A stretch of DNA of 11,779 nucleotides from Pseudobacteriovorax sp. (GTDB lineage: Bacteria; Bdellovibrionota_B; Oligoflexia; Oligoflexales; Oligoflexaceae): assembly GCA_050293845.1 (NCBI GenBank), contig JBNKNM010000181.1:1-11779 (forward strand), given 5' to 3'. The position numbers and the translations under genes are program-made. Under the pieces are notes generated by a model that was not told where the DNA came from, made no database searches, and saw nothing but the letters and a program-made list of their open reading frames with translations. This document shows positions 2,791 to 11,779 of this stretch, piece by piece. The stretch's first letter is position 1. Each line of letters begins with the position of its first letter.

Positions 2791-3159
2791 GTGCTAAAGG
2801 TTTTACTAGTAGACAATGAAGAAGAAGTCATAGACACCTTTAGATTTGTCTTAGCGAAATCATTACCCAATGTGGAGCTATTGTTTGCAGAAAGTGGCTA
2901 CGATGCGATGGCGATCATTGACAAAGAGAAGCCGCAAGTGGTGTTGTCCGACTATCGCATGGAAGATGGAGATGGTGGTTCCTTAGCTCACTATTGCGTT
3001 AGTAAGAATATACCTTGTGTAATTCTTACCAGTTTTTCTACAGCGGACATTATTCCTTATATTCCAGAAGGAACCTTAGTTATGGCAAAAATGGAAGTGC
3101 TCAAAAAAGGACGATTGTTAAATCTCGTCAACTCAATGTTATCCCATCAGGCCAGCTAA
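2791..3159 (+). CDS. Stand-alone response regulator receiver (CheY-like) protein
   Basis: KVLLVDNE acidic pocket, phosphoacceptor D54 (VLSDYRM), T80 (VILTS) and K100. No output domain. GTG start with GGGGGAG RBS just upstream. Confidence 0.9.
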   Translation: MLKVLLVDNEEEVIDTFRFVLAKSLPNVELLFAESGYDAMAIIDKEKPQVVLSDYRMEDGDGGSLAHYCVSKNIPCVILTSFSTADIIPYIPEGTLVMAKMEVLKKGRLLNLVNSMLSHQAS

Positions 3160-3186
3160 CTCGAAAATTTTCACATGAGTGAGGAT

Positions 3187-3435
3187 TTACTCTGGGACAG
3201 GTAACTCAAAAAATCGCTGAGAGGGGAACGACAAGAACTTACTCAAGCTGTGAACACGATCATAAAAAAAGTATTGATCCTTCCATTCGTGTTTACAAGT
3301 GTAAAAAGCGTGATTTCCGTTTTCCCAGAGATCTTCAATCAACATTAAACTTTGTGAAACGATAGGAATCAGCTCTGAGGCAGGGCCTTTCTGGAAATCT
3401 TCCAGATAGTAGCAGGAAACTAGAGCTGGCTCCAT
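3187..3435 (-). CDS. Hypothetical protein (82 aa); may be the 3' part of a disrupted gene starting at 3644
   Basis: ORF track call; GAGGT lies about 10 nt upstream of the ATG. The same frame stays open upstream to a TGA at 3513-3511 and again to 3570. No recognisable family. Confidence 0.5.
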   Translation of the reverse strand: MEPALVSCYYLEDFQKGPASELIPIVSQSLMLIEDLWENGNHAFYTCKHEWKDQYFFYDRVHSLSKFLSFPSQRFFELPVPE

Positions 3436-3527
3436 TCTCCTGTAAACCTCAAGTAAGCGTGGCTCACGTGACCATGCTTCGGATGTCCTAACTACAAGAT
3501 GCTTTCGACTTCAGTCGAGAGAGGATG

Positions 3528-3644
3528 TCACATGAGACCAGTCTTGATTGGTTTCTTTAGAACGTTCTGATCATAGACTTGCTCAAAGTACAAGGCTATT
3601 TGTTCCAAGGTTAATACTAAGTTCCAATACTTTTCGTCGCTCAT
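3528..3644 (-). CDS. Small ORF (38 aa, MSDEKYWNLVLTLEQIALYFEQVYDQNVLKKPIKTGLM); small protein or 5' fragment of a pseudogene
   Basis: Hand translation. A good RBS (AAGGGAG) sits 7 nt upstream of the ATG at 3644, with an AT-rich promoter-like region further upstream. Confidence 0.5.
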   Translation of the reverse strand: MSDEKYWNLVLTLEQIALYFEQVYDQNVLKKPIKTGLM

Positions 3645-3668
3645 GACTAAGCTCCCTTAATGATGAGG

Positions 3669-3713
3669 TTAATCAAGATTAAGAAATATTAACCTATATT
3701 AATTTTCTATCAA
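3669..3713 (-). promoter_or_regulatory. Candidate sigma70-type promoter overlapping four helically phased TTAA repeats
   Basis: On the - strand TTGATA (3713-3708), 16 nt, TAATAT (3691-3686). TTAA occurs at 3669, 3679, 3689 and 3699, and TTAATC-AA-GATTAA forms an inverted repeat at 3669-3682. Confidence 0.35.
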
Positions 3714-3782
3714 AGCAAAAAAGAGAGAAAAATCAAAAAAATAGATCAGTTATTCGGTGATATAGATAATGTCAAAGAATGG

Positions 3783-6308
3783 CTAAACAGCATGGGAATC
3801 CTTTTCATAGGATTCAATGGTCCCTTGGTGACCTTCGATATGAACCATTTCCCCATCACCTAACAACCGGCCCGCCTGGGGAACATTTAGAGCCGCTGGC
3901 ACTAAAAATATCCTGGCTAGGCTTGTAAACTGGTTAGCCTGACGACTTTGCTCAACTATGATCCCTTTGACCAACGGTAGTAATAAACTCAAGAAATAAC
4001 TATCTTGGGCTAGATAAAGGATATTGCGATTAAGCAAACATGCATAAATGTCATTATAGCAGGCTACTTTCCTTATGGCACCATTGGCATTTGTATCTGT
4101 TAATCCATGTCCTTTTATTTGTCCCCATGGAGTTACTGAGTCGGACTTCAGATTTGTGGTTATATCGTCAAATTTTGCGGGGGGGTTACGACCTCTATAT
4201 TGGGAAAACAAAAGAGCTTCCTTCTGGTTTTGCAGGTAGCTATTGCGTCTGCGTTTGATAAGGGATTTAATTTCTGTGGCATCTATGTAACCACCTAGCT
4301 CTATAGCTTCTAACTCTTCCACTAATAGAAAATGAATATCATCAGGGCTTTCAAGATAATGACAATTCGAAAGTTGGTGTCCCATTTGCGTGAGAAGACT
4401 TTTTTGGGAGGAGAAGAACGCGGCGCGCGCTAATTTAAGCTTCTCTCCTGTGGCTGTAATGGCGGAAATTTTTTTGTAGATGTTCCTGACTTCTTGAGCA
4501 AGAGGGTTATGGATTCCTGTACCAATTTCACGTAGAAAGTAAGATGGTGTGCGTTGGTGTTCTGCTATGCGAAGCCGCTCCTTGATTATCGAGAGTTGAT
4601 TCCCATAGTTGGCTAAAATCGGTAATAGAAATTTGGGTTTTGCAGATATATTGTCAAACTCAGACTTATTATCGAAAAGGCTAAGAAATCCAAACCTATC
4701 GATAAATTGTTCCAGTTCACCTGCGACTGATGGAAAATCTTGTTTTAACATATAAAAAAATTTTTCTGGACGCGAGCTGTCAAGCCTCGTAAACACCTTG
4801 TGTTCTTGAAAAGTGGTTGCTAACAGCCAAAATGCTTCAAAGTAGTCAGGGACCGGGAGGCAAATCGAATATTCCAGAGTGTGGCGTTGCCAGGGAACAC
4901 GATGCTTTTGAAGGAGATTGTCCAAGATCTCAATTTGCTCATTTTTGTCAATATTATTCTTTAAAATTTCCTGTTGTGTTAGTTTGAGGTAATGGAAAAA
5001 ATGATCAAACTTTCTAAATAATTCATCCATATTGTTTCTGTATATATTGTTTTTCGTTTGATTTTGGACTTTGCTAACAAGGTTTAAAGCTATACTTTGC
5101 TTGGAGGATAGAAAAATTGATTGCGGATGAAGTAAAGGAGATTTTATACGCCGCTGCCATTTGAAGCCTTTTGGGTATAGTGAAAGCTTAGTAGAGCCAC
5201 TAAGTAAAAAATCACAAAACTTCTCTTTCTGATTTTCAGAGGGAAGAAAGGTTGCTATTGCATGGACGACACTTGTATTCAAAAACATTTGTCCTTTGAT
5301 GTAGGAAAGCAAGTGCAGCAACTTGGGACCAAAGGTCGATAGTGTGGATTTTTCTATACCAAGAAAGCGGAGTAGCTCTTCTATCGCAGAACTATATGTT
5401 GCGCGTGAAATGGAAAATGATAATGGTGTGGTTATTCCCAAAAAACTAGAATCAAGGCTTTCACAGGACCAAATATTCTCTAGATGATTAAATTCATGTA
5501 TCGCAGGAAAATATAGAGGTTTCTTTATACTAATGAGGTGGTAACCATCATCATCTATGAAATAGTGAATCCGTAATGGATGCTGAAATTTTCTACAAAC
5601 TGCATGAACATGTGCCAGCATGGAACTTATCAATTTATTTTTAGAATCATCCAGCTTTTGTTTTTGATTGTCCATGGGATCGTTTAGTAATTGCAGCTCT
5701 TGGCTTTCCCAACAGTGAATCAAGTTTAATTTTTGTGAACAGGATTGCCACTGAATAATAGCTTCTTTGCGATTTCCAGTATTAGGGTTGGCACTGTATA
5801 TAAACGCTTCACTTGATGCTGATACTTGCTTTTGGATCATAATAGCCCCTCTAAAGGGAAGACCCCTAAGCTTTACTTCATTTGCAAGAATATGCTTGAT
5901 CGCCTGCTCTAGGGAGTGGAGCTTACTGATATTGGATATTATTCTAAAATTGGAATGATAGGCAGGCTCAGATAGAGATATCCTGAGCAGTAGTGGGCTG
6001 TTTTCATTCAACATGCCCGCAAGCGATGATCCTAAGAATTGGCTGAGATCTACTTTTTCTATGGTCTCTTGGATCATATGATGGAGCATATTGCGAGTAT
6101 TGGTGTCTTTAAGAGTTTTTTTTGCTAATTTACAAAATACGTGTGAGTTTCCATGACCAAGAATTTCATTGCAGGTGGATACTGGTATCACCCAAAATCT
6201 GGGAGTGTTCATATCTCCAGTTATTTGAGCAAGTCGATAGCACTTTATCCCTATTTCTTCTATACTGCTGTCGATACATTCCAGTTGGTTGAGAACTTTT
6301 TGGGACAT
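3783..6308 (-). CDS. PEP-synthase / rifampicin-phosphotransferase (RPH/PigC)-like three-domain protein, catalytically degenerate
   Basis: N-terminal ATP-grasp remnants: IGIK..RL, TPRFWVI, PLLLRIS, AIMIQKQV..S..FIYSANPNTGNRKEAII. Central domain starts IWSCESLDSSFLGITTPLSFS and includes FIDRFG and PDDIHFLLVEEL. C-terminal mobile His domain GIIVEQSRQANQFTSLARIFLVPA...GDGEMVHIEGHQGTI has Gln at the phospho-His position. Start taken as ATG 6308 (GAGGT RBS, 1 nt after the upstream stop) rather than 6320. Confidence 0.85.
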   Translation of the reverse strand: MSQKVLNQLECIDSSIEEIGIKCYRLAQITGDMNTPRFWVIPVSTCNEILGHGNSHVFCKLAKKTLKDTNTRNMLHHMIQETIEKVDLSQFLGSSLAGMLNENSPLLLRISLSEPAYHSNFRIISNISKLHSLEQAIKHILANEVKLRGLPFRGAIMIQKQVSASSEAFIYSANPNTGNRKEAIIQWQSCSQKLNLIHCWESQELQLLNDPMDNQKQKLDDSKNKLISSMLAHVHAVCRKFQHPLRIHYFIDDDGYHLISIKKPLYFPAIHEFNHLENIWSCESLDSSFLGITTPLSFSISRATYSSAIEELLRFLGIEKSTLSTFGPKLLHLLSYIKGQMFLNTSVVHAIATFLPSENQKEKFCDFLLSGSTKLSLYPKGFKWQRRIKSPLLHPQSIFLSSKQSIALNLVSKVQNQTKNNIYRNNMDELFRKFDHFFHYLKLTQQEILKNNIDKNEQIEILDNLLQKHRVPWQRHTLEYSICLPVPDYFEAFWLLATTFQEHKVFTRLDSSRPEKFFYMLKQDFPSVAGELEQFIDRFGFLSLFDNKSEFDNISAKPKFLLPILANYGNQLSIIKERLRIAEHQRTPSYFLREIGTGIHNPLAQEVRNIYKKISAITATGEKLKLARAAFFSSQKSLLTQMGHQLSNCHYLESPDDIHFLLVEELEAIELGGYIDATEIKSLIKRRRNSYLQNQKEALLFSQYRGRNPPAKFDDITTNLKSDSVTPWGQIKGHGLTDTNANGAIRKVACYNDIYACLLNRNILYLAQDSYFLSLLLPLVKGIIVEQSRQANQFTSLARIFLVPAALNVPQAGRLLGDGEMVHIEGHQGTIESYEKDSHAV

Positions 6309-6309
6309 A

Positions 6310-8910
6310 TTACACCTCAAGCCAGGCTATGATAGATTGCAAATTTTGCAGATATAATTCGAAATGATTTGAGTAATCGAAGTAGTTTTGAATTAATTTT
6401 ATGGGAAACAAGCAGATGCAATACAACCGTATTGATAATTGTAATCCATAGTGCCAATCCTTGTCATTTCCACTAAATAACTGTCTTTTTACCAGGTCGT
6501 CATAGAATTGACAGCTAAGAGTGTCTAAATTATGTTGAAAAAGATTGGGCTCATGAACCAAAATTTCTATAAATTCACACTGGGGAGGTAGGAATGAAAG
6601 AAGGTGATAACGGGTGACTCGCAAATTCTCGTTGCCCATGGCAACAGCACTAGTATCTGCCAGACTAGGAATTTTGTCGAGTTGCTGCCATGGTATCAAC
6701 CAAGCCTTGAAGTTTTGCAAATAGCTTAGTTGTTTTAGAAAGAGTTGATCGGGTTTCCATTCCGCAAAGAGTTTGCGTGTGCAGTATATAAGGTTTAACC
6801 AAAAAGCAGTATCTTCTAAACAAAGCTTTGGCTGGAATTTAAAGATAGAGGGAAATTGAGATTGATTAAGCTTATTCATGAGTAAGGTCCATAATGTGAG
6901 CTTCTGAGCAATACCCATGGGAGCAGCCTTAGCATCCTCCTCGATTAATAAAATTTGATCCGTGCCGTTATATTTTAATAAGTGGTGGTGGGGAAAGATA
7001 TCTTGGTTTTTTTGCTGTAAAAAACTGTCCCAGTGTCGCAGCTCTGAGTGATAGTATATGATATTTTTGGGATGAAAAAGGAGTGATGCCGTTTTTGGAT
7101 CAAAGCAACGCAGTTTGGTAATGAAATTTATAAACTGTTGGTCGTTATCAGGTTGAAGATAAAATTTAAAAATTTGGCTCCGGTTTTTATAGTTGATATT
7201 GAGTTTCGCTTGAGAAAAAATTTGTGAGTTTTCAGCCGAACTATGATTCCAAGAAATTGAGTTGATCTGGTTGTCTACTTCTTGGAGTTGATGGCATAAG
7301 TTCTTAAGGTTGATGTTACGTTGAGTGGTTGCAAAATGATTAAACAACACCAGTCGCTCGTTTGTAATATGATCTACTAATGAAGCAATATGGGCGGCTA
7401 AGGAAAAACCTACTAGGATTTCTCCCAAACGGGATTCTTTTCCAGAGCCGAAACAGTCCATCATGTTTAAAGTGTGGCGACTATCCCCGAGTTGTCGGGA
7501 ATCGTTGGTATTAATATTCCAATAAGGGGATAAAAAGGATGCGAAAATTCCTTGGTCTCGCTCTTCTAAGTAAAATGATGATTGCAAAGAGTCAGTGGCT
7601 AGACATTGACCTGTAGCCATGGCTACCTGTGATAAGAGCCATTCATAGAGGTGTTGGTGACTGTGAGTCCCTACGACCATGGCTTGATAGGCGAGCATCA
7701 GGTCGGTGGATGAACAGTCGAAGGCTGACCGGAGTCTTTTTTCCGACAAAAAGCAGGAGCTATAAGCCTGTATGCCTGACATACAATTTAAGCCCCTTGG
7801 TAGTTGAAAGAGCAAGGGGTCGCTTTCGATCTTACAAGATCGTATGAAATTTTCGCCAAACTGGTTGGCTTTCACAACCATAGATCGCAATAATTGCCAT
7901 GCATGATGCAGATAAAAGATAGAAGTTGACGCATCGTTAATCTTAATTTGTAACAAAAGCAGGATTTTGGTGCCTAGAATTTGGTGTTGAAAATTGCAGC
8001 TTGTAATTCCTACTATGTCAAGCAGAGGTTGCACCACTTCGTCTTTGTTGACTTCCAGCCAATGTAGGAATTCAAAGGAGCGGTCTTGGGATTCGAATTC
8101 AAAAGTGTAAAAGTATGGTAAATATTTGCTTGTAACGGATGTATGAATTCCCTGTTCAGCTGTTATAGCTTTGCACACTGACTCTAGAATAGAGAGCTTA
8201 GTTTGAGCTTGAGGGGCAACAGGCAAATACACAGATTCTAAGACCCTTTGCCCCTTAAGGTGTAGAGGGCCTACAACCCCTATTGGTGTTTCCAGTCCGC
8301 CTATGAGGTGACCTACTTGAGCAAATGCTTGAGAACTTTGGGTTTTACATAAATCTAATCCTTGAATGGATCGCGATGTTTGAATGCGTAAAAAGTTGAG
8401 GCGTCGTTGCCTACCTTCATCGGTGATATCATCCCCGTAGGGAACAGACTGCCAAGCTGGTAATGCTACGATATCGATGTTTTGATCTGCGAATGCTTCA
8501 TGATAAATGTGGTATAGTGTGGCTCTATCCTCGGTTTTAACAGGAGTCATAACTATTTGGATATCCGAACGTTTCATATTAAATGTGACGCGTTTTACAA
8601 TACAGCATAAGGGCGGGAATGTTTTATGAGGGCCACTAACGATGACATTTTCAATAATTCTTCCTGAAACAAAGAATTGATGGGTATCTTCGTGGGCCGT
8701 TATAGCCAGACCTCCTTGAGAAATATTTGTAATATTGAAGCTTTGCTGCTCTGCATGTTGGGCGACTCCTATTTTCCATTGGCCGCGGCTGACTACAAAC
8801 CGAACTGATTGTCGCTTACTTTTGTGCATCGCTATATCCGTAGAGTTTCTTTTTTCTATCGGAATTTCACAAAATGGGTTAACTATTAAAAAGTGGTTAT
8901 AATTATCCAT
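6310..8910 (-). CDS. Multidomain protein: PilZ + degenerate class I HMG-CoA-reductase fold + probable degenerate APH/choline-kinase-like domain
   Basis: PilZ motifs RQSVR (33-37) and NISQGG (62-67). HMGR scaffold at about residues 155-525: R..RL.FL, LIGGLETPIGVVGPL..KG....VYLPVA, CKAIT...GI, ATGQCLA, LNMMDCFGSGKESRLGEILVGFSLA. The C-terminal region resembles a kinase-like fold (FP......LLIEED; WQQLDKIP...LPPQCEFIEIL), with lower confidence. The true start may be ATG 8829 (Met28), just before the RxxxR motif. Confidence 0.8.
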   Translation of the reverse strand: MDNYNHFLIVNPFCEIPIEKRNSTDIAMHKSKRQSVRFVVSRGQWKIGVAQHAEQQSFNITNISQGGLAITAHEDTHQFFVSGRIIENVIVSGPHKTFPPLCCIVKRVTFNMKRSDIQIVMTPVKTEDRATLYHIYHEAFADQNIDIVALPAWQSVPYGDDITDEGRQRRLNFLRIQTSRSIQGLDLCKTQSSQAFAQVGHLIGGLETPIGVVGPLHLKGQRVLESVYLPVAPQAQTKLSILESVCKAITAEQGIHTSVTSKYLPYFYTFEFESQDRSFEFLHWLEVNKDEVVQPLLDIVGITSCNFQHQILGTKILLLLQIKINDASTSIFYLHHAWQLLRSMVVKANQFGENFIRSCKIESDPLLFQLPRGLNCMSGIQAYSSCFLSEKRLRSAFDCSSTDLMLAYQAMVVGTHSHQHLYEWLLSQVAMATGQCLATDSLQSSFYLEERDQGIFASFLSPYWNINTNDSRQLGDSRHTLNMMDCFGSGKESRLGEILVGFSLAAHIASLVDHITNERLVLFNHFATTQRNINLKNLCHQLQEVDNQINSISWNHSSAENSQIFSQAKLNINYKNRSQIFKFYLQPDNDQQFINFITKLRCFDPKTASLLFHPKNIIYYHSELRHWDSFLQQKNQDIFPHHHLLKYNGTDQILLIEEDAKAAPMGIAQKLTLWTLLMNKLNQSQFPSIFKFQPKLCLEDTAFWLNLIYCTRKLFAEWKPDQLFLKQLSYLQNFKAWLIPWQQLDKIPSLADTSAVAMGNENLRVTRYHLLSFLPPQCEFIEILVHEPNLFQHNLDTLSCQFYDDLVKRQLFSGNDKDWHYGLQLSIRLYCICLFPIKLIQNYFDYSNHFELYLQNLQSIIAWLEV

Positions 8911-9120: not shown

Positions 9121-10197
9121 TTGAACATGGATGCGTCGGATGATTTATCGGAACTAAATGAGTCAGCCCTTTGGATGGTCACGCAGGAACCTGCTTTAAA
9201 CGATTTTGTCATATATTTAACAAATAAAAAACGACTGATCTTAGCTAAACCAGACGGTGAGCATATTTTAAGGTTTTCTCATAGCCATTTAGATCAAGTT
9301 AAATCTGCTTTCTCTAGGATGATATTGCGGGGAGAAAGCAAACTGCATAAGCTCTGTGGCCTTTTAGCCGAAGAATTATTTCAGGGGCATGTCTCATTGC
9401 AGTCGGTGGTTGTTGGTCGCCTTCATAACGGGAATCGTTTTACTTTGTCGCAAATTGTTTCCCAGCAGGATATTTACGAACGAACCGACTTAGATTTGGG
9501 CAATTGGCTTTTGGGAAAGCTACTATATCAAGCCGAAGATAGCTGGACTCAACCAGAACTCATAGCAAATTTTGTCGAATATCAACCCTTGATGGGAAAT
9601 CGATACAGTATTCATAAAATGATTTCTCGCATCAAGGCAGAAGAGGAAATTTGGGCTAAAACTGTTGATGAAATTTTCGAGTTGGACAAGTTGGTATTGC
9701 GTGATAAAGAGTTGCGCGAGCTGAGTTGTTATATCAAGGATGTTTTTGGAATAAAGTTGGTTGTTACTAGTGCAGCTGAAGTACCACAGATACTAAATAT
9801 GCTAAAGAACAGGAAATGGACAGGTGAACTTTTAGCACGGCAGAGAATTCCAGATCTGCAGACCAATCGACAATTAGAAATACTCGAAATCAAAAACCAT
9901 ATGGGACCAGTAGTGCAAAAAAGTAGCGGCTGGCAGGCACTTAAAGTCGTTGTCGAGTGGTGGGGAAAGGTTTTTGAATTACAAATCCAACCTCTTGAGA
10001 TCTACCTTCGCGAGAGAGAGTATCTGACCAAGGAATCCCATGCCAATTTTAAAGAAAGGAGAGAGCGCATAAGGCAGGAGGTAGTCGCTAAAATACCGCT
10101 ATTTGGATTTTATTTAGAATTGCTAAAATGGTTTTTTATAGATCCAAAGCAGCCCCAACCAACAATGAAGGGCGTAAAGGTTCAGATTCAGGAATAA
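9121..10197 (+). CDS. Divergent RelA/SpoT synthetase-domain (nucleotidyltransferase fold) protein with an uncharacterised N-terminal domain
   Basis: RSH SYNTH-like motifs in the correct order: SRIK (169-172), KDVFGIK (206-212), EIKNH..KSSGWQALK (256-275), FELQIQP (285-291), SHANFK (306-311). No HD hydrolase, TGS or ACT domains are apparent. Start is TTG 9121 or ATG 9127. Confidence 0.75.
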   Translation: MNMDASDDLSELNESALWMVTQEPALNDFVIYLTNKKRLILAKPDGEHILRFSHSHLDQVKSAFSRMILRGESKLHKLCGLLAEELFQGHVSLQSVVVGRLHNGNRFTLSQIVSQQDIYERTDLDLGNWLLGKLLYQAEDSWTQPELIANFVEYQPLMGNRYSIHKMISRIKAEEEIWAKTVDEIFELDKLVLRDKELRELSCYIKDVFGIKLVVTSAAEVPQILNMLKNRKWTGELLARQRIPDLQTNRQLEILEIKNHMGPVVQKSSGWQALKVVVEWWGKVFELQIQPLEIYLREREYLTKESHANFKERRERIRQEVVAKIPLFGFYLELLKWFFIDPKQPQPTMKGVKVQIQE

Positions 10198-10284: not shown

Positions 10285-11115
10285 TTGGCTTTTAAAATTG
10301 TAAAACCGGCAGGTATTCACCTTATCATCATCCATATTATCTTTGTTTTATCCTTATTCTATGTAGAATTTTCTTGGAAATGGATAGCTCTTTGTGCTTT
10401 CTGCTATTATTTACGAATGTTTGCTATAACTGCAGGCTTTCACCGGCTTTTTTCCCATAAATCATATCGGACTGGCAGGTTTTTCCAGTTTGTTCTTGGG
10501 TTCTTAGGCACGTCTTCGCTGCAGCGAGGTCCCCTTTGGTGGGCGGGGGTGCATCGCCATCACCACCGTTATTCTGATACGGAGAAAGATATCCATTCGC
10601 CGGTTGCCCATGGCCTTTGGGAGTCCCACATCGGTTGGGTGATGAATAAGTCCTACAAGGGTAAAGTTGATTTATCTACTGTTCAGGATTTAAGTAAATT
10701 TCCTGAGCTAGTATGGCTCGATCGCTACTATCTTCTACCGGCCATTATTTTTGCTCTAACGTTATTTTTGTGGGGTGGTTTGCAAGCTTTTCTTTGGGGA
10801 ACAATTGTTAGTACAGTTCTACTGTGGCATGGGACATTTACTGTCAATTCTGTTACTCATGTATTTGGTAGTCGTCGCTTTGAAACTAAGGATCAGAGTC
10901 GTAATAATTGGATTGTCGCATTGCTTACCCTTGGTGAAGGATGGCATAATAATCATCATTTCTACCCTCGTTCCGTTCGTCAAGGGTTCGTTTGGTGGGA
11001 ACTTGATATTAGCTACTACTTGTTAAGAATTCTAAGCTGGTTGGGTATTGTTAGGGACCTACAGGGCACTAATCTTACTCACATTTTACCACTTGCTAAG
11101 AAGGGAAATGTATAA
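10285..11115 (+). CDS. Membrane fatty-acid (acyl-CoA/acyl-lipid) desaturase, Delta-9/OLE1-like
   Basis: Three His boxes (HRLFSH, HRHHH, HNNHH) plus ITAGFHR, GPLWWA, DIHSP, GEGWHNNHH and WWELD family motifs. TTG start with GGGAG RBS at 10273-10277. Confidence 0.95.
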   Translation: MAFKIVKPAGIHLIIIHIIFVLSLFYVEFSWKWIALCAFCYYLRMFAITAGFHRLFSHKSYRTGRFFQFVLGFLGTSSLQRGPLWWAGVHRHHHRYSDTEKDIHSPVAHGLWESHIGWVMNKSYKGKVDLSTVQDLSKFPELVWLDRYYLLPAIIFALTLFLWGGLQAFLWGTIVSTVLLWHGTFTVNSVTHVFGSRRFETKDQSRNNWIVALLTLGEGWHNNHHFYPRSVRQGFVWWELDISYYLLRILSWLGIVRDLQGTNLTHILPLAKKGNV

Positions 11116-11118
11116 TTC

Positions 11119-11779
11119 ATGGAACGACTTGCTATCATTGGCAGTGGTATTGCTGGGATGGGTGCAGCTCATTTCTTAAAGCAGAACTTCGATATTACCA
11201 TTTTCGAAAAGGCTAACTATATCGGAGGTCATACCAATACTGTTTATGTTGAAGAAAATAACCAGCAAGTTCCTATTGATACAGGGTTCATGGTTTTTAA
11301 CCGTATAACTTACCCCAATCTTTTAAGACTGTTTCGTCAATTAGACGTTCCCATCCAAAAAACCTGCATGAGCTTCAGTGTGCGGGATTCTAAGGCTAAC
11401 CTTGAATACTGTGGCACTGGTCTGAATGGTCTTTTCCGCCAGCGCCGTAATTTATTCAATGCGAGATTTATACGCATGCTCCTCAGTATCAATCGATTTA
11501 ATCAAGACGCTCCCGCAGTACTTAGCAGCCCTGCTTATGAAAATGTGACAATTGGAGAATTTGTCGAACAGAAGGGCTATGGTGCAGATTTTTTGAACAA
11601 ATATCTTGTACCAATGAGTGGAGCCGTATGGTCAACTCCCCCAGAAAAAATGCTGGAATTTCCCGCTAAAACATTGATTCGTTTTTTTTATAATCATGGC
11701 TTTCTTGGCCTAAGTACCCAACACCAATGGTATACCCCAACTGGGGGAAGCGAAGAGTATAAAAAACGATTAATTGCTC
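11119..11779 (+). CDS. FAD-dependent oxidoreductase, COG2907 (amine-oxidase-like), N-terminal part (3' end outside window)
   Basis: Hand translation from ATG 11119, 3 nt after the desaturase stop: MERLAIIGSGIAGMGAAHFL..FEK..YIGGHTNT...IDTGFMVFN..TYPNL..LF...MSFSV...YLVPMSGAVWS...FPAKTLIRFFYNHG. It has a Rossmann GxGxxG and typical COG2907 motifs, and is open to the window edge. Not in the ORF track. Confidence 0.93.
   Translation, partial: MERLAIIGSGIAGMGAAHFLKQNFDITIFEKANYIGGHTNTVYVEENNQQVPIDTGFMVFNRITYPNLLRLFRQLDVPIQKTCMSFSVRDSKANLEYCGTGLNGLFRQRRNLFNARFIRMLLSINRFNQDAPAVLSSPAYENVTIGEFVEQKGYGADFLNKYLVPMSGAVWSTPPEKMLEFPAKTLIRFFYNHGFLGLSTQHQWYTPTGGSEEYKKRLIA

Follow-up and report, generated by a model that had tools for sequence, protein, structure and literature searches.

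A PilZ-headed pair of catalytically degenerate lipid-type enzymes in Pseudobacteriovorax, a candidate non-catalytic c-di-GMP-responsive module

Bacterial receptors of cyclic di-guanosine monophosphate (c-di-GMP) include PilZ proteins such as YcgR, MrkH, PP4397 and BcsA, which has a PilZ domain, and the catalytically dead GGDEF/EAL receptors LapD, FimX and PelD, which are retained in c-di-GMP signalling and whose dead domain itself binds the nucleotide. To our knowledge, pseudoenzymes are well documented in eukaryotic signalling, and in bacteria they seldom comprise a whole pair of metabolic enzymes. The locus described here is a pair of adjacent genes in a stretch of 11,779 bp from Pseudobacteriovorax sp., called the window, which is a whole contig of a 6.68-Mb assembly (96.4% complete, 741 contigs; G000). 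The product of gene 1, P0001, joins a PilZ domain to a class I HMG-CoA reductase (HMGR) fold and to a fold of the APH/choline-kinase type, and the product of gene 2, P0004, is similar to rifampin phosphotransferases and phosphoenolpyruvate (PEP) synthases. The catalytic motifs of all four enzyme modules (HMGR, kinase, ATP-grasp and swivel) are replaced, and the pair is taken, with moderate confidence, to be a functional non-catalytic module that would respond to c-di-GMP.

Each part of the pair has described counterparts. Compared with class I HMGR enzymes (Methanothermococcus, 6hr7; human, 1dq8 and 1hw8), P0001 keeps the fold and the Gly/Pro scaffold (G204, P209, G211, G214, P215, P230 and G254), whereas other residues stand where HMGR has its catalytic Glu, Lys and Asp and its DAxGxN and GTxGGGT cofactor motifs, and in P0001 a PilZ domain and a kinase fold are joined to the HMGR fold. 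P0004 shares with the Listeria rifampin phosphotransferase RPH-Lm (5hv1, 5fbs) and with PEP-synthase-like dikinases the architecture of ATP-grasp, helical substrate and C-terminal swivel domains, but it has a Gln in place of the swivel His and has lost the acidic and Gly-rich motifs of ATP-grasp; there is no reason to expect that it inactivates rifamycins. The closest relatives are intact pairs of Bdellovibrionota and other bacteria, which have the same domain order, gene order, adjacency and N-terminal PilZ domain with RxxxR and D/NxSxxG. Unlike these, the window copies lack the catalytic motifs, with an HMG-CoA_red score of 44.6 bits, no PPDK_N match and a PEP-utilizers score of 11.4. The PilZ domain of P0001 differs from that of the known PilZ receptors in being fused to two dead metabolic-enzyme folds, and P0001 differs from LapD, FimX and PelD in that the sensor is a canonical PilZ domain, while the dead domains, of lipid-type metabolic origin, would be the output. 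The components are of known kinds (PilZ receptors, pseudoenzymes, HMGR, APH and RPH folds), and as far as the searches go their combination, in which a PilZ sensor sits on a two-gene enzyme pair that has degenerated in both partners, is new. The literature search found no publication on a PilZ-HMG-CoA reductase fusion or on a PilZ pseudoenzyme in the c-di-GMP context, gave nothing relevant for DUF3419 with HMG-CoA reductase, and did not find the intact fusion family in print; the word "reductase" occurs 0 times in the accessible part of a PilZ survey (10.1101/814665).

The genes, domains and motifs of the pair are the following, with residue numbers of P0001 or P0004.

6310-8910, minus strand: gene 1 (P0001, 866 amino acids), PilZ with dead HMGR and dead APH/choline-kinase folds; stop codon TAA at 6312-6310
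8470-8814, minus strand: PilZ domain, P0001 residues 33-147, from fold match and motifs
8800-8814, minus strand: RxxxR motif, R33-Q-S-V-R37, preceded by K32 and followed by F-V-V, from the protein sequence
8710-8727, minus strand: N62-I-S64-Q-G-G67 motif, from the protein sequence
7342-8460, minus strand: class I HMG-CoA-reductase fold, P0001 residues 151-523, from Pfam and structure match
6313-7332, minus strand: APH/choline-kinase-like fold, P0001 residues 527-866, from structure match
6314-6318, minus strand: GAGGT Shine-Dalgarno-like site inside the terminal part of gene 1, separated by 5 nt from the ATG at 6308
3783-6308, minus strand: gene 2 (P0004, 841 amino acids from the ATG at 6308), rifampin-phosphotransferase/PEP-synthase-like three-domain protein without catalytic residues; stop codon at 3785-3783
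5493-6308, minus strand: ATP-grasp-like domain, P0004 residues 1-272, from alignments
4209-5492, minus strand: central helical domain, P0004 residues 273-700, counterpart of the RPH substrate-binding domain
3786-4208, minus strand: swivel (PEP-utilisers mobile) domain, P0004 residues 701-841, from alignments

The junction of the two genes reads cttGAGGTgTAAtATG on the minus strand, with TAA at 6312-6310, the single base 6309 and ATG at 6308-6306, and by this arrangement genes 1 and 2 are a predicted translationally coupled pair. A first-pass annotation, made from the letters, had described two frames of about 840-870 codons that are 1 nt apart, share a GAGGT ribosome-binding site and run for about 5.1 kb with no stops or frameshifts, and this description holds: neither gene, of 866 and 841 codons, has a stop in frame. 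The open reading frame (ORF) of gene 2 has 845 codons when counted from a TTG (3783-6320, minus strand; P0002), and P0004 is its protein-database form. The ORF list of the window has no further ORF of at least 80 amino acids overlapping 3783-8910. Codons 1-27 of gene 1 (8829-8910) have no counterpart in any relative in alignment A4, which has six rows (five degenerate members and one intact). Because all relatives start just before RxxxR and residues 1-32 are modelled with a predicted local distance difference test score (pLDDT) below 50, M28 (ATG at 8829) may be the true start and the 27-residue leader possibly untranslated; the upstream sequence has no clear Shine-Dalgarno site before either candidate ATG. 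A second contig, of 35.6 kb, also encodes both proteins, and the contigs of three DNA runs of one study have 0 variant letters over both genes.

PilZ domain of gene 1—In the accessible part of the PilZ survey, c-di-GMP-binding PilZ domains are defined by RxxxR(hxh) and [D/N]hSxxG motifs (10.1101/814665), and the motifs of P0001 fit both definitions, in agreement with the earlier claim that RxxxR and NxSxxG are intact. AlphaFold2 models were made from a 50-row alignment for P0001 (mean pLDDT 75.4) and from an 18-row alignment for P0004 (mean pLDDT 73.5). Residues 33-147 of P0001 are modelled with a pLDDT of about 90 as a six-stranded beta-barrel with a C-terminal helix, and structure comparison matches them to MrkH (Z 12.8, root-mean-square deviation (rmsd) 2.5, 110 residues aligned), YcgR (Z 12.3) and PP4397 (Z 12.2). 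R33, S35, R37, W45 and G67 are invariant in alignment A4. Among intact members HMGR identity is 42-66% vs 12-25% for PilZ, and in the degenerate copies it is 23-26% vs 20-24%, so HMGR has come down to the level of PilZ. The enzyme domains of the degenerate copies have lost their extra constraint, and the PilZ domain has retained its usual one. The window genome has at least 10 GGDEF matches and thus c-di-GMP signalling, and the PilZ domain of P0001 is predicted to bind c-di-GMP.

HMGR and kinase modules of gene 1—Residues 151-523 match HMG-CoA reductase 6hr7 (Z 25.2, rmsd 3.9, 310 aligned; Foldseek E 7.9e-17), and HMG-CoA_red (PF00368) is the sole Pfam family whose cut-off P0001 passes (44.6 bits, cut-off 27); the NCBIfam model TIGR00533 gives 35.2 bits vs a cut-off of 441.8. 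In the alignments NIEN is replaced by QVGH (E by G200), TGDAAGQN by INDASTSI, SGDKK by ESDPL, ATGQD by ATGQC (D by C436) and GTVGGGT by NT-NDSR; we take these to be the catalytic and cofactor motifs of HMGR, with its catalytic Glu, Lys, Asp (and His). Residues 527-866, which are modelled with moderate pLDDT (35-90), match APH(9)-Ia (Z 13.0, rmsd 3.8, 274 aligned) and choline kinase (Z 12.6). This region has no Pfam match at E<=1 (PF01636, PF02958), and the intact relatives do match APH and EcKL. The catalytic loop HNDFNPRN (HxDxxxxN) is replaced by a gapped DTSAVAMGN and the metal-binding Asp of DWE is lost in RYH, both presumably catalytic motifs of APH-type kinases; the beta-3 Lys (K599) is retained.

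The extent of loss was counted in alignment A3, which has 50 rows, namely 45 of 150 listed representatives, P0001 included, and five ORFs from the loci of relatives. The rows outside the degenerate clade were chosen by length as full fusions, and the result is five degenerate and 45 intact rows. A column is near-invariant when at least 85% of the 45 intact rows are identical, which gives 121 columns for protein 1. P0001 keeps 31 of the 91 such columns in HMGR (intact rows: minimum 77, median 88) and eight of the 29 in the kinase (minimum 22, median 28).

Gene 2: dikinase-like protein—P0004 matches RPH-Lm (5hv1) over its full length (Foldseek E 7.5e-26, 929 columns) and the ATP-binding domain alone (5hv6) with a Foldseek E of 7e-10. 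The three folds that the first-pass annotation had named, HMGR, a probable APH/choline kinase and an ATP-grasp/His-swivel dikinase, are all recovered in structure searches of the predicted models. P0004, like its longer form P0002, passes no Pfam cut-off, with no match to PPDK_N (PF01326) and 11.4 vs 23.1 bits for PEP-utilizers (PF00391). NCBIfam scores are likewise below cut-off (NF004881, 111.2 vs 883; NF041857, RIF_Ptrans_rph, 31.5 vs 999), and for the two proteins of the pair ESM Atlas gives family-level leads only (HMG-CoA_red at 0.77, PPDK_N/PEP-utilizers clusters at 0.96). In the ATP-grasp domain GGK is changed to GIK, SFAGQ is lost, GxGEGxVSG is deleted, DIEW is changed to RIHY and LQxRP to ISIKKP, so that the D..E pair is now R..H and Q260 is S; K22, R109, S111 and Q159 are kept. 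The central domain is the best-kept part of P0004, and its W..S..G.T.PL.FS...Y block at 280-305 is largely intact. In the swivel domain TDPGW is changed to QDSYF, and Gln793 (codon 3930-3932) aligns with residue 825 of 5fbs and with a His that is invariant in 16 intact relatives; we take the swivel histidine at this position of 5fbs to be the phospho-carrier. These 16 relatives, of which eight lack part of the N-terminus because their loci end there, are the reference of alignment A5, and P0004 keeps nine of 42 near-invariant columns in ATP-grasp, 26 of 76 in the central domain and 12 of 35 in the swivel, vs a median of about 0.99 retained by the intact relatives in the dikinase domains. Loss of catalytic motifs with scaffold residues kept, as the annotation had it, is thus borne out in both proteins (31/91, 8/29, 9/42 and 12/35 columns, with Gln at the phospho-His position).

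Intact family in relatives—At E<=0.001, 12 of 41 related genomes have a match to P0001 and 22 have one to P0002, the window genome counted. After the degenerate clade, the relatives of the window proteins are an intact family, which consists of a PilZ-HMGR-APH/EcKL kinase fusion of 900-950 amino acids, next to or near a protein of about 900 amino acids with PPDK_N and PEP-utilizers domains. Intact members score 356-367 bits for HMG-CoA_red, 220-259 for PPDK_N and 75-80 for PEP-utilizers, and the intact partner reaches NCBIfam NF004883 ("phosphoenolpyruvate synthase") with 1105 bits at a cut-off of 1063. In genome G003 (L026) the intact genes are adjacent, at L026:7453-10200 and L026:10212-12917 (HMGR 366.7 bits, PPDK_N 258.7, PilZ E 8.9e-4), and in G001 (L028), G002 (L029) and G033 (L030) they lie inside larger clusters. 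The first reading of the window had named uncharacterised lipid/isoprenoid-type clusters in which an HMGR-phosphotransferase fusion goes together with a PEP-utilising enzyme, and this combination exists in these four genomes. The neighbours in the three clusters are genes for an AMP-binding ligase, a UbiA-like prenyltransferase, DUF3419, P450, CN-hydrolase, methyltransferase, alpha/beta-hydrolase and MMPL proteins, and such clusters are, by gene content, an uncharacterised lipid-type pathway. No ligase, UbiA, DUF3419 or P450 gene stands beside the pair within the window. The domain order of the window pair and its adjacent same-strand partner gene have the same arrangement in L025 and L026, and sequence comparison establishes the descent of the window pair from this conserved, uncharacterised lipid-type enzyme pair.

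Degenerate clade—A HMMER scan of 1.84 billion representative proteins gives 159 matches to P0001 at E<=0.001, of which five have E<=1e-30. These are the query, P0008 of G001, which is in the same genus as the window genome by genome grouping, P0009 (WP_132323514.1) of the cultured Pseudobacteriovorax antillogorgiicola (G002), and metagenomic clusters, P0010/P0158 and the fragment P0011. Degenerate copies in relatives, which the first-pass annotation had suggested to look for, are present in G001, G002 and two metagenomic clusters. Searches of genome contigs and of metagenome contigs with P0001 gave no further related loci, nor did a search with alignment A4, and a word-based protein search gave the query itself and one to three weak matches only. 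At E<=1e-25, 3 of 131 genomes of the class carry the degenerate type, and these belong to two genera (Pseudobacteriovorax-type). The G002 pair is co-degenerate in both partners, with the swivel His changed to Tyr and PPDK_N at only 30 bits, and its genes overlap by ATGA. In a tree of 50 rows, in which P0158 stands for its 90% cluster in place of the shorter P0010, the five degenerate rows lie on one side of a branch with an SH-aLRT of 99. This is compatible with a single origin of the degenerate clade, and the tree carries a warning of long-branch attraction.

Selection and decay—Read in any of the other five frames, the two stretches have 43-67 stops each vs 0 in frame, and 1000 mononucleotide shuffles average 51-53 stops and never have fewer than 29-31. 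In frame, the genes give a codon signal of 0.18 and 0.21 bits per codon vs about 0 in shifted frames. P0008 is divergent to a fatty-acid desaturase gene and an amine-oxidase gene, which are 66% and 67% identical to the window genes at 10285-11115 and 11119-11778, and because these neighbours are the same in both genomes, P0001 and P0008 are probably positional orthologs. Their identity is 24% vs 66-72% for other orthologs of the window genome and G001, and the alignment spans residues 31-865 at E 1.5e-72. At four-fold degenerate sites, the conserved neighbour genes show near-random agreement between G000 and G001 (a fraction of 0.33-0.37 is identical). Since unconstrained DNA would be unalignable when synonymous sites are saturated, yet the proteins align and the frames are open, the data argue indirectly for purifying selection on a protein that evolves fast, much faster than its neighbours, and against neutral decay. 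The first reading had reasoned that neutral decay to this divergence should have brought stop codons, and the count of 0 in frame vs 43-67 elsewhere, with an ortholog that is alignable despite saturation, agrees with it.

The explanation which we prefer, at moderate confidence, is that of a functional non-catalytic c-di-GMP-responsive module. The pair originates from a fusion of PilZ, a class I HMGR-type thioester reductase and an APH/choline-kinase-type kinase, together with a dikinase of the rifampin-phosphotransferase type with ATP-grasp and His-swivel domains. One copy, confined to a narrow lineage of the Pseudobacteriovorax type, has lost the catalytic residues of all four modules, and its role would now be one of binding instead of catalysis. 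The PilZ domain would sense c-di-GMP and the dead enzyme folds would be surfaces for ligands or partners, of which the N-terminal block of the dikinase central substrate-binding domain and the N-terminal scaffold of HMGR are the best kept. The likely target may be lipid or envelope remodelling, because of the ancestry of the family and the neighbouring operon of the desaturase/cyclopropane-synthase type. A bolder form of this explanation is speculative and rather unlikely to hold in full: the co-degenerated pseudoenzymes would be a PilZ-gated sensor or scaffold and a new kind of c-di-GMP effector, which would have kept the ancestral lipid or acyl-phosphate-type ligand and would link the c-di-GMP level to the remodelling of envelope lipids in predatory-type Bdellovibrionota.

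Several observations weigh against a functional module, and most of them would suit an eroding relic, that is a copy of a dispensable pathway which drifts towards loss and is now functionless. In coding potential the two genes rank low within the genome, at the 4th and 11th percentile among 2255 ORFs of at least 300 codons; the neighbouring well-conserved desaturase is equally low in codon signal (0.179). The terminal branches of the degenerate members are very long (3.1-5.6 changes per column vs a median of 0.99), identity to the nearest relatives is 24-27% vs 58-72% for neighbouring genes, and there are only about five 50%-identity representatives among the 1.84 billion proteins, all of which is open to reading as erosion. 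The distribution is patchy in the class, and the intact cluster was not found in the window genome. In G001 the degenerate fusion P0008 stands without a degenerate partner gene, with an MMPL-LolA gene next to it instead, and from this locus the pair appears not to be obligatory. The catalytic-residue loss in both proteins is read from alignments at about 20% identity, and the Pfam PilZ score (PF07238, 14.5-15.2 bits, with E 0.028 at 15.2) is below the cut-off of 22.5; of nine N-terminal domains of the fusion family, seven match Pfam PilZ at E<=1 (best 2.6e-5). A relic is nevertheless unlikely: the two frames together run through 1707 codons with no stop, although about 50 would be expected in each, synonymous sites between G000 and G001 are saturated and the proteins still align end to end (E 1e-70), and at least three genomes from two genera, along with two more metagenomic clusters, have the same degenerate state. 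The PilZ motifs are invariant, and translational coupling is retained in G000 and G002.

Less probable than a relic is that the pair are neofunctionalised enzymes, which would carry new active-site residues for a different reaction and substrate and would still be gated by c-di-GMP. The folds are complete and confidently modelled, ligand-contacting elements survive (K599; K22, R109, S111 and Q159; the central block 280-305), and P0009 of G002 still has the ENxxG glutamate. However, nucleophile, general-base and metal-binding residues are lost together in four modules, including the phospho-histidine essential to the swivel, and the replacements differ among degenerate members (G, D, E or P at E200; C, S, S or D at D436), unlike a new conserved active site.

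A further alternative, which we hold to be the least probable of those weighed, is that the dead copies are regulatory subunits that bind and regulate intact paralogous enzymes, as the first-pass annotation had also considered. HMGR folds are obligate oligomers, and G001 and G002 do carry intact and degenerate copies together, so that coexistence stands for these two genomes; in the window genome the idea is disfavoured, since no intact fusion and no intact dikinase partner was found at 96.4% completeness in 741 contigs, where an unassembled copy is possible. The ligase of the clusters has no close ortholog in the window genome (best 25% identity), and a DUF3419 gene was not found there, a weak result in that the control matched nowhere. 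The same genome has two ordinary PPDK_N proteins of 802-804 amino acids. It also has a stand-alone intact HMGR (413 amino acids, 356.7 bits) at G000:C47 (L033:50-2643), which follows an FMN_dh-type (IDI-2-like) gene and is presumably the real mevalonate-pathway enzyme of the organism. A secreted effector, an idea that comes from the fast evolution, was rejected, because P0001 carries a sensor for a cytoplasmic second messenger and inspection by eye shows no leader-like N-terminus.

The surroundings of the pair are as follows. The genes at window 10285-11778 form an operon of a desaturase and an amine-oxidase-type flavoprotein, which in the window genome and in G001 is oriented divergently from the degenerate fusion gene; in G001 (L027:2-4120) this operon goes on with a DUF1365 gene and a cyclopropane-fatty-acid-synthase gene. 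Directly after the degenerate fusion gene of G001, L027:7033-10410 encodes a protein of 1126 amino acids in which an MMPL/sterol-sensing-type transporter is joined to a LolA-like domain; at this place the window has the dikinase-like gene. Between the fusion gene and the desaturase gene, in the window genome only, there is a gene at 9121-10197 (plus strand) for a 358-amino-acid protein that resembles RelA/SpoT nucleotidyltransferases only weakly (E 0.0029, below cut-off); a 58%-identical homolog is encoded on another contig in G002, and none was found in G001 and G003. Just downstream of gene 2, at window 3192-3531, lies a dispersed repeat of about 340 bp, which overlaps an ORF of 82 amino acids (3187-3435, minus strand). 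It has 25 matches in its own genome at 83-100% identity, many of them shortened at one end, and a summed contig depth of 135 vs about 8 (one DNA run) with many variant letters. It looks like an element of the miniature inverted-repeat transposable element type, and a repeat search of 3100-3800 found no internal inverted repeats in it. Further genes, both for signalling proteins, are a stand-alone response-regulator receiver of 122 amino acids (2791-3159, plus strand) and the N-terminal part of a 7TMR-DISM sensor, which runs off the contig (1-771, minus strand). PADLOC matched neither protein of the pair as a defence system.

What sets the pair apart is that both partners have apparently lost catalysis together, yet they are full-length, coupled and seemingly under selection, with a canonical c-di-GMP sensor attached. 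If the preferred reading of a functional non-catalytic module is true, the pair would be a natural separation-of-function variant for the role of PilZ in the intact PilZ-HMGR-kinase/dikinase lipid pathway, and it would represent a new type of output for PilZ receptors. Cultured P. antillogorgiicola has both an intact and a degenerate pair, so the question is experimentally testable in this species.

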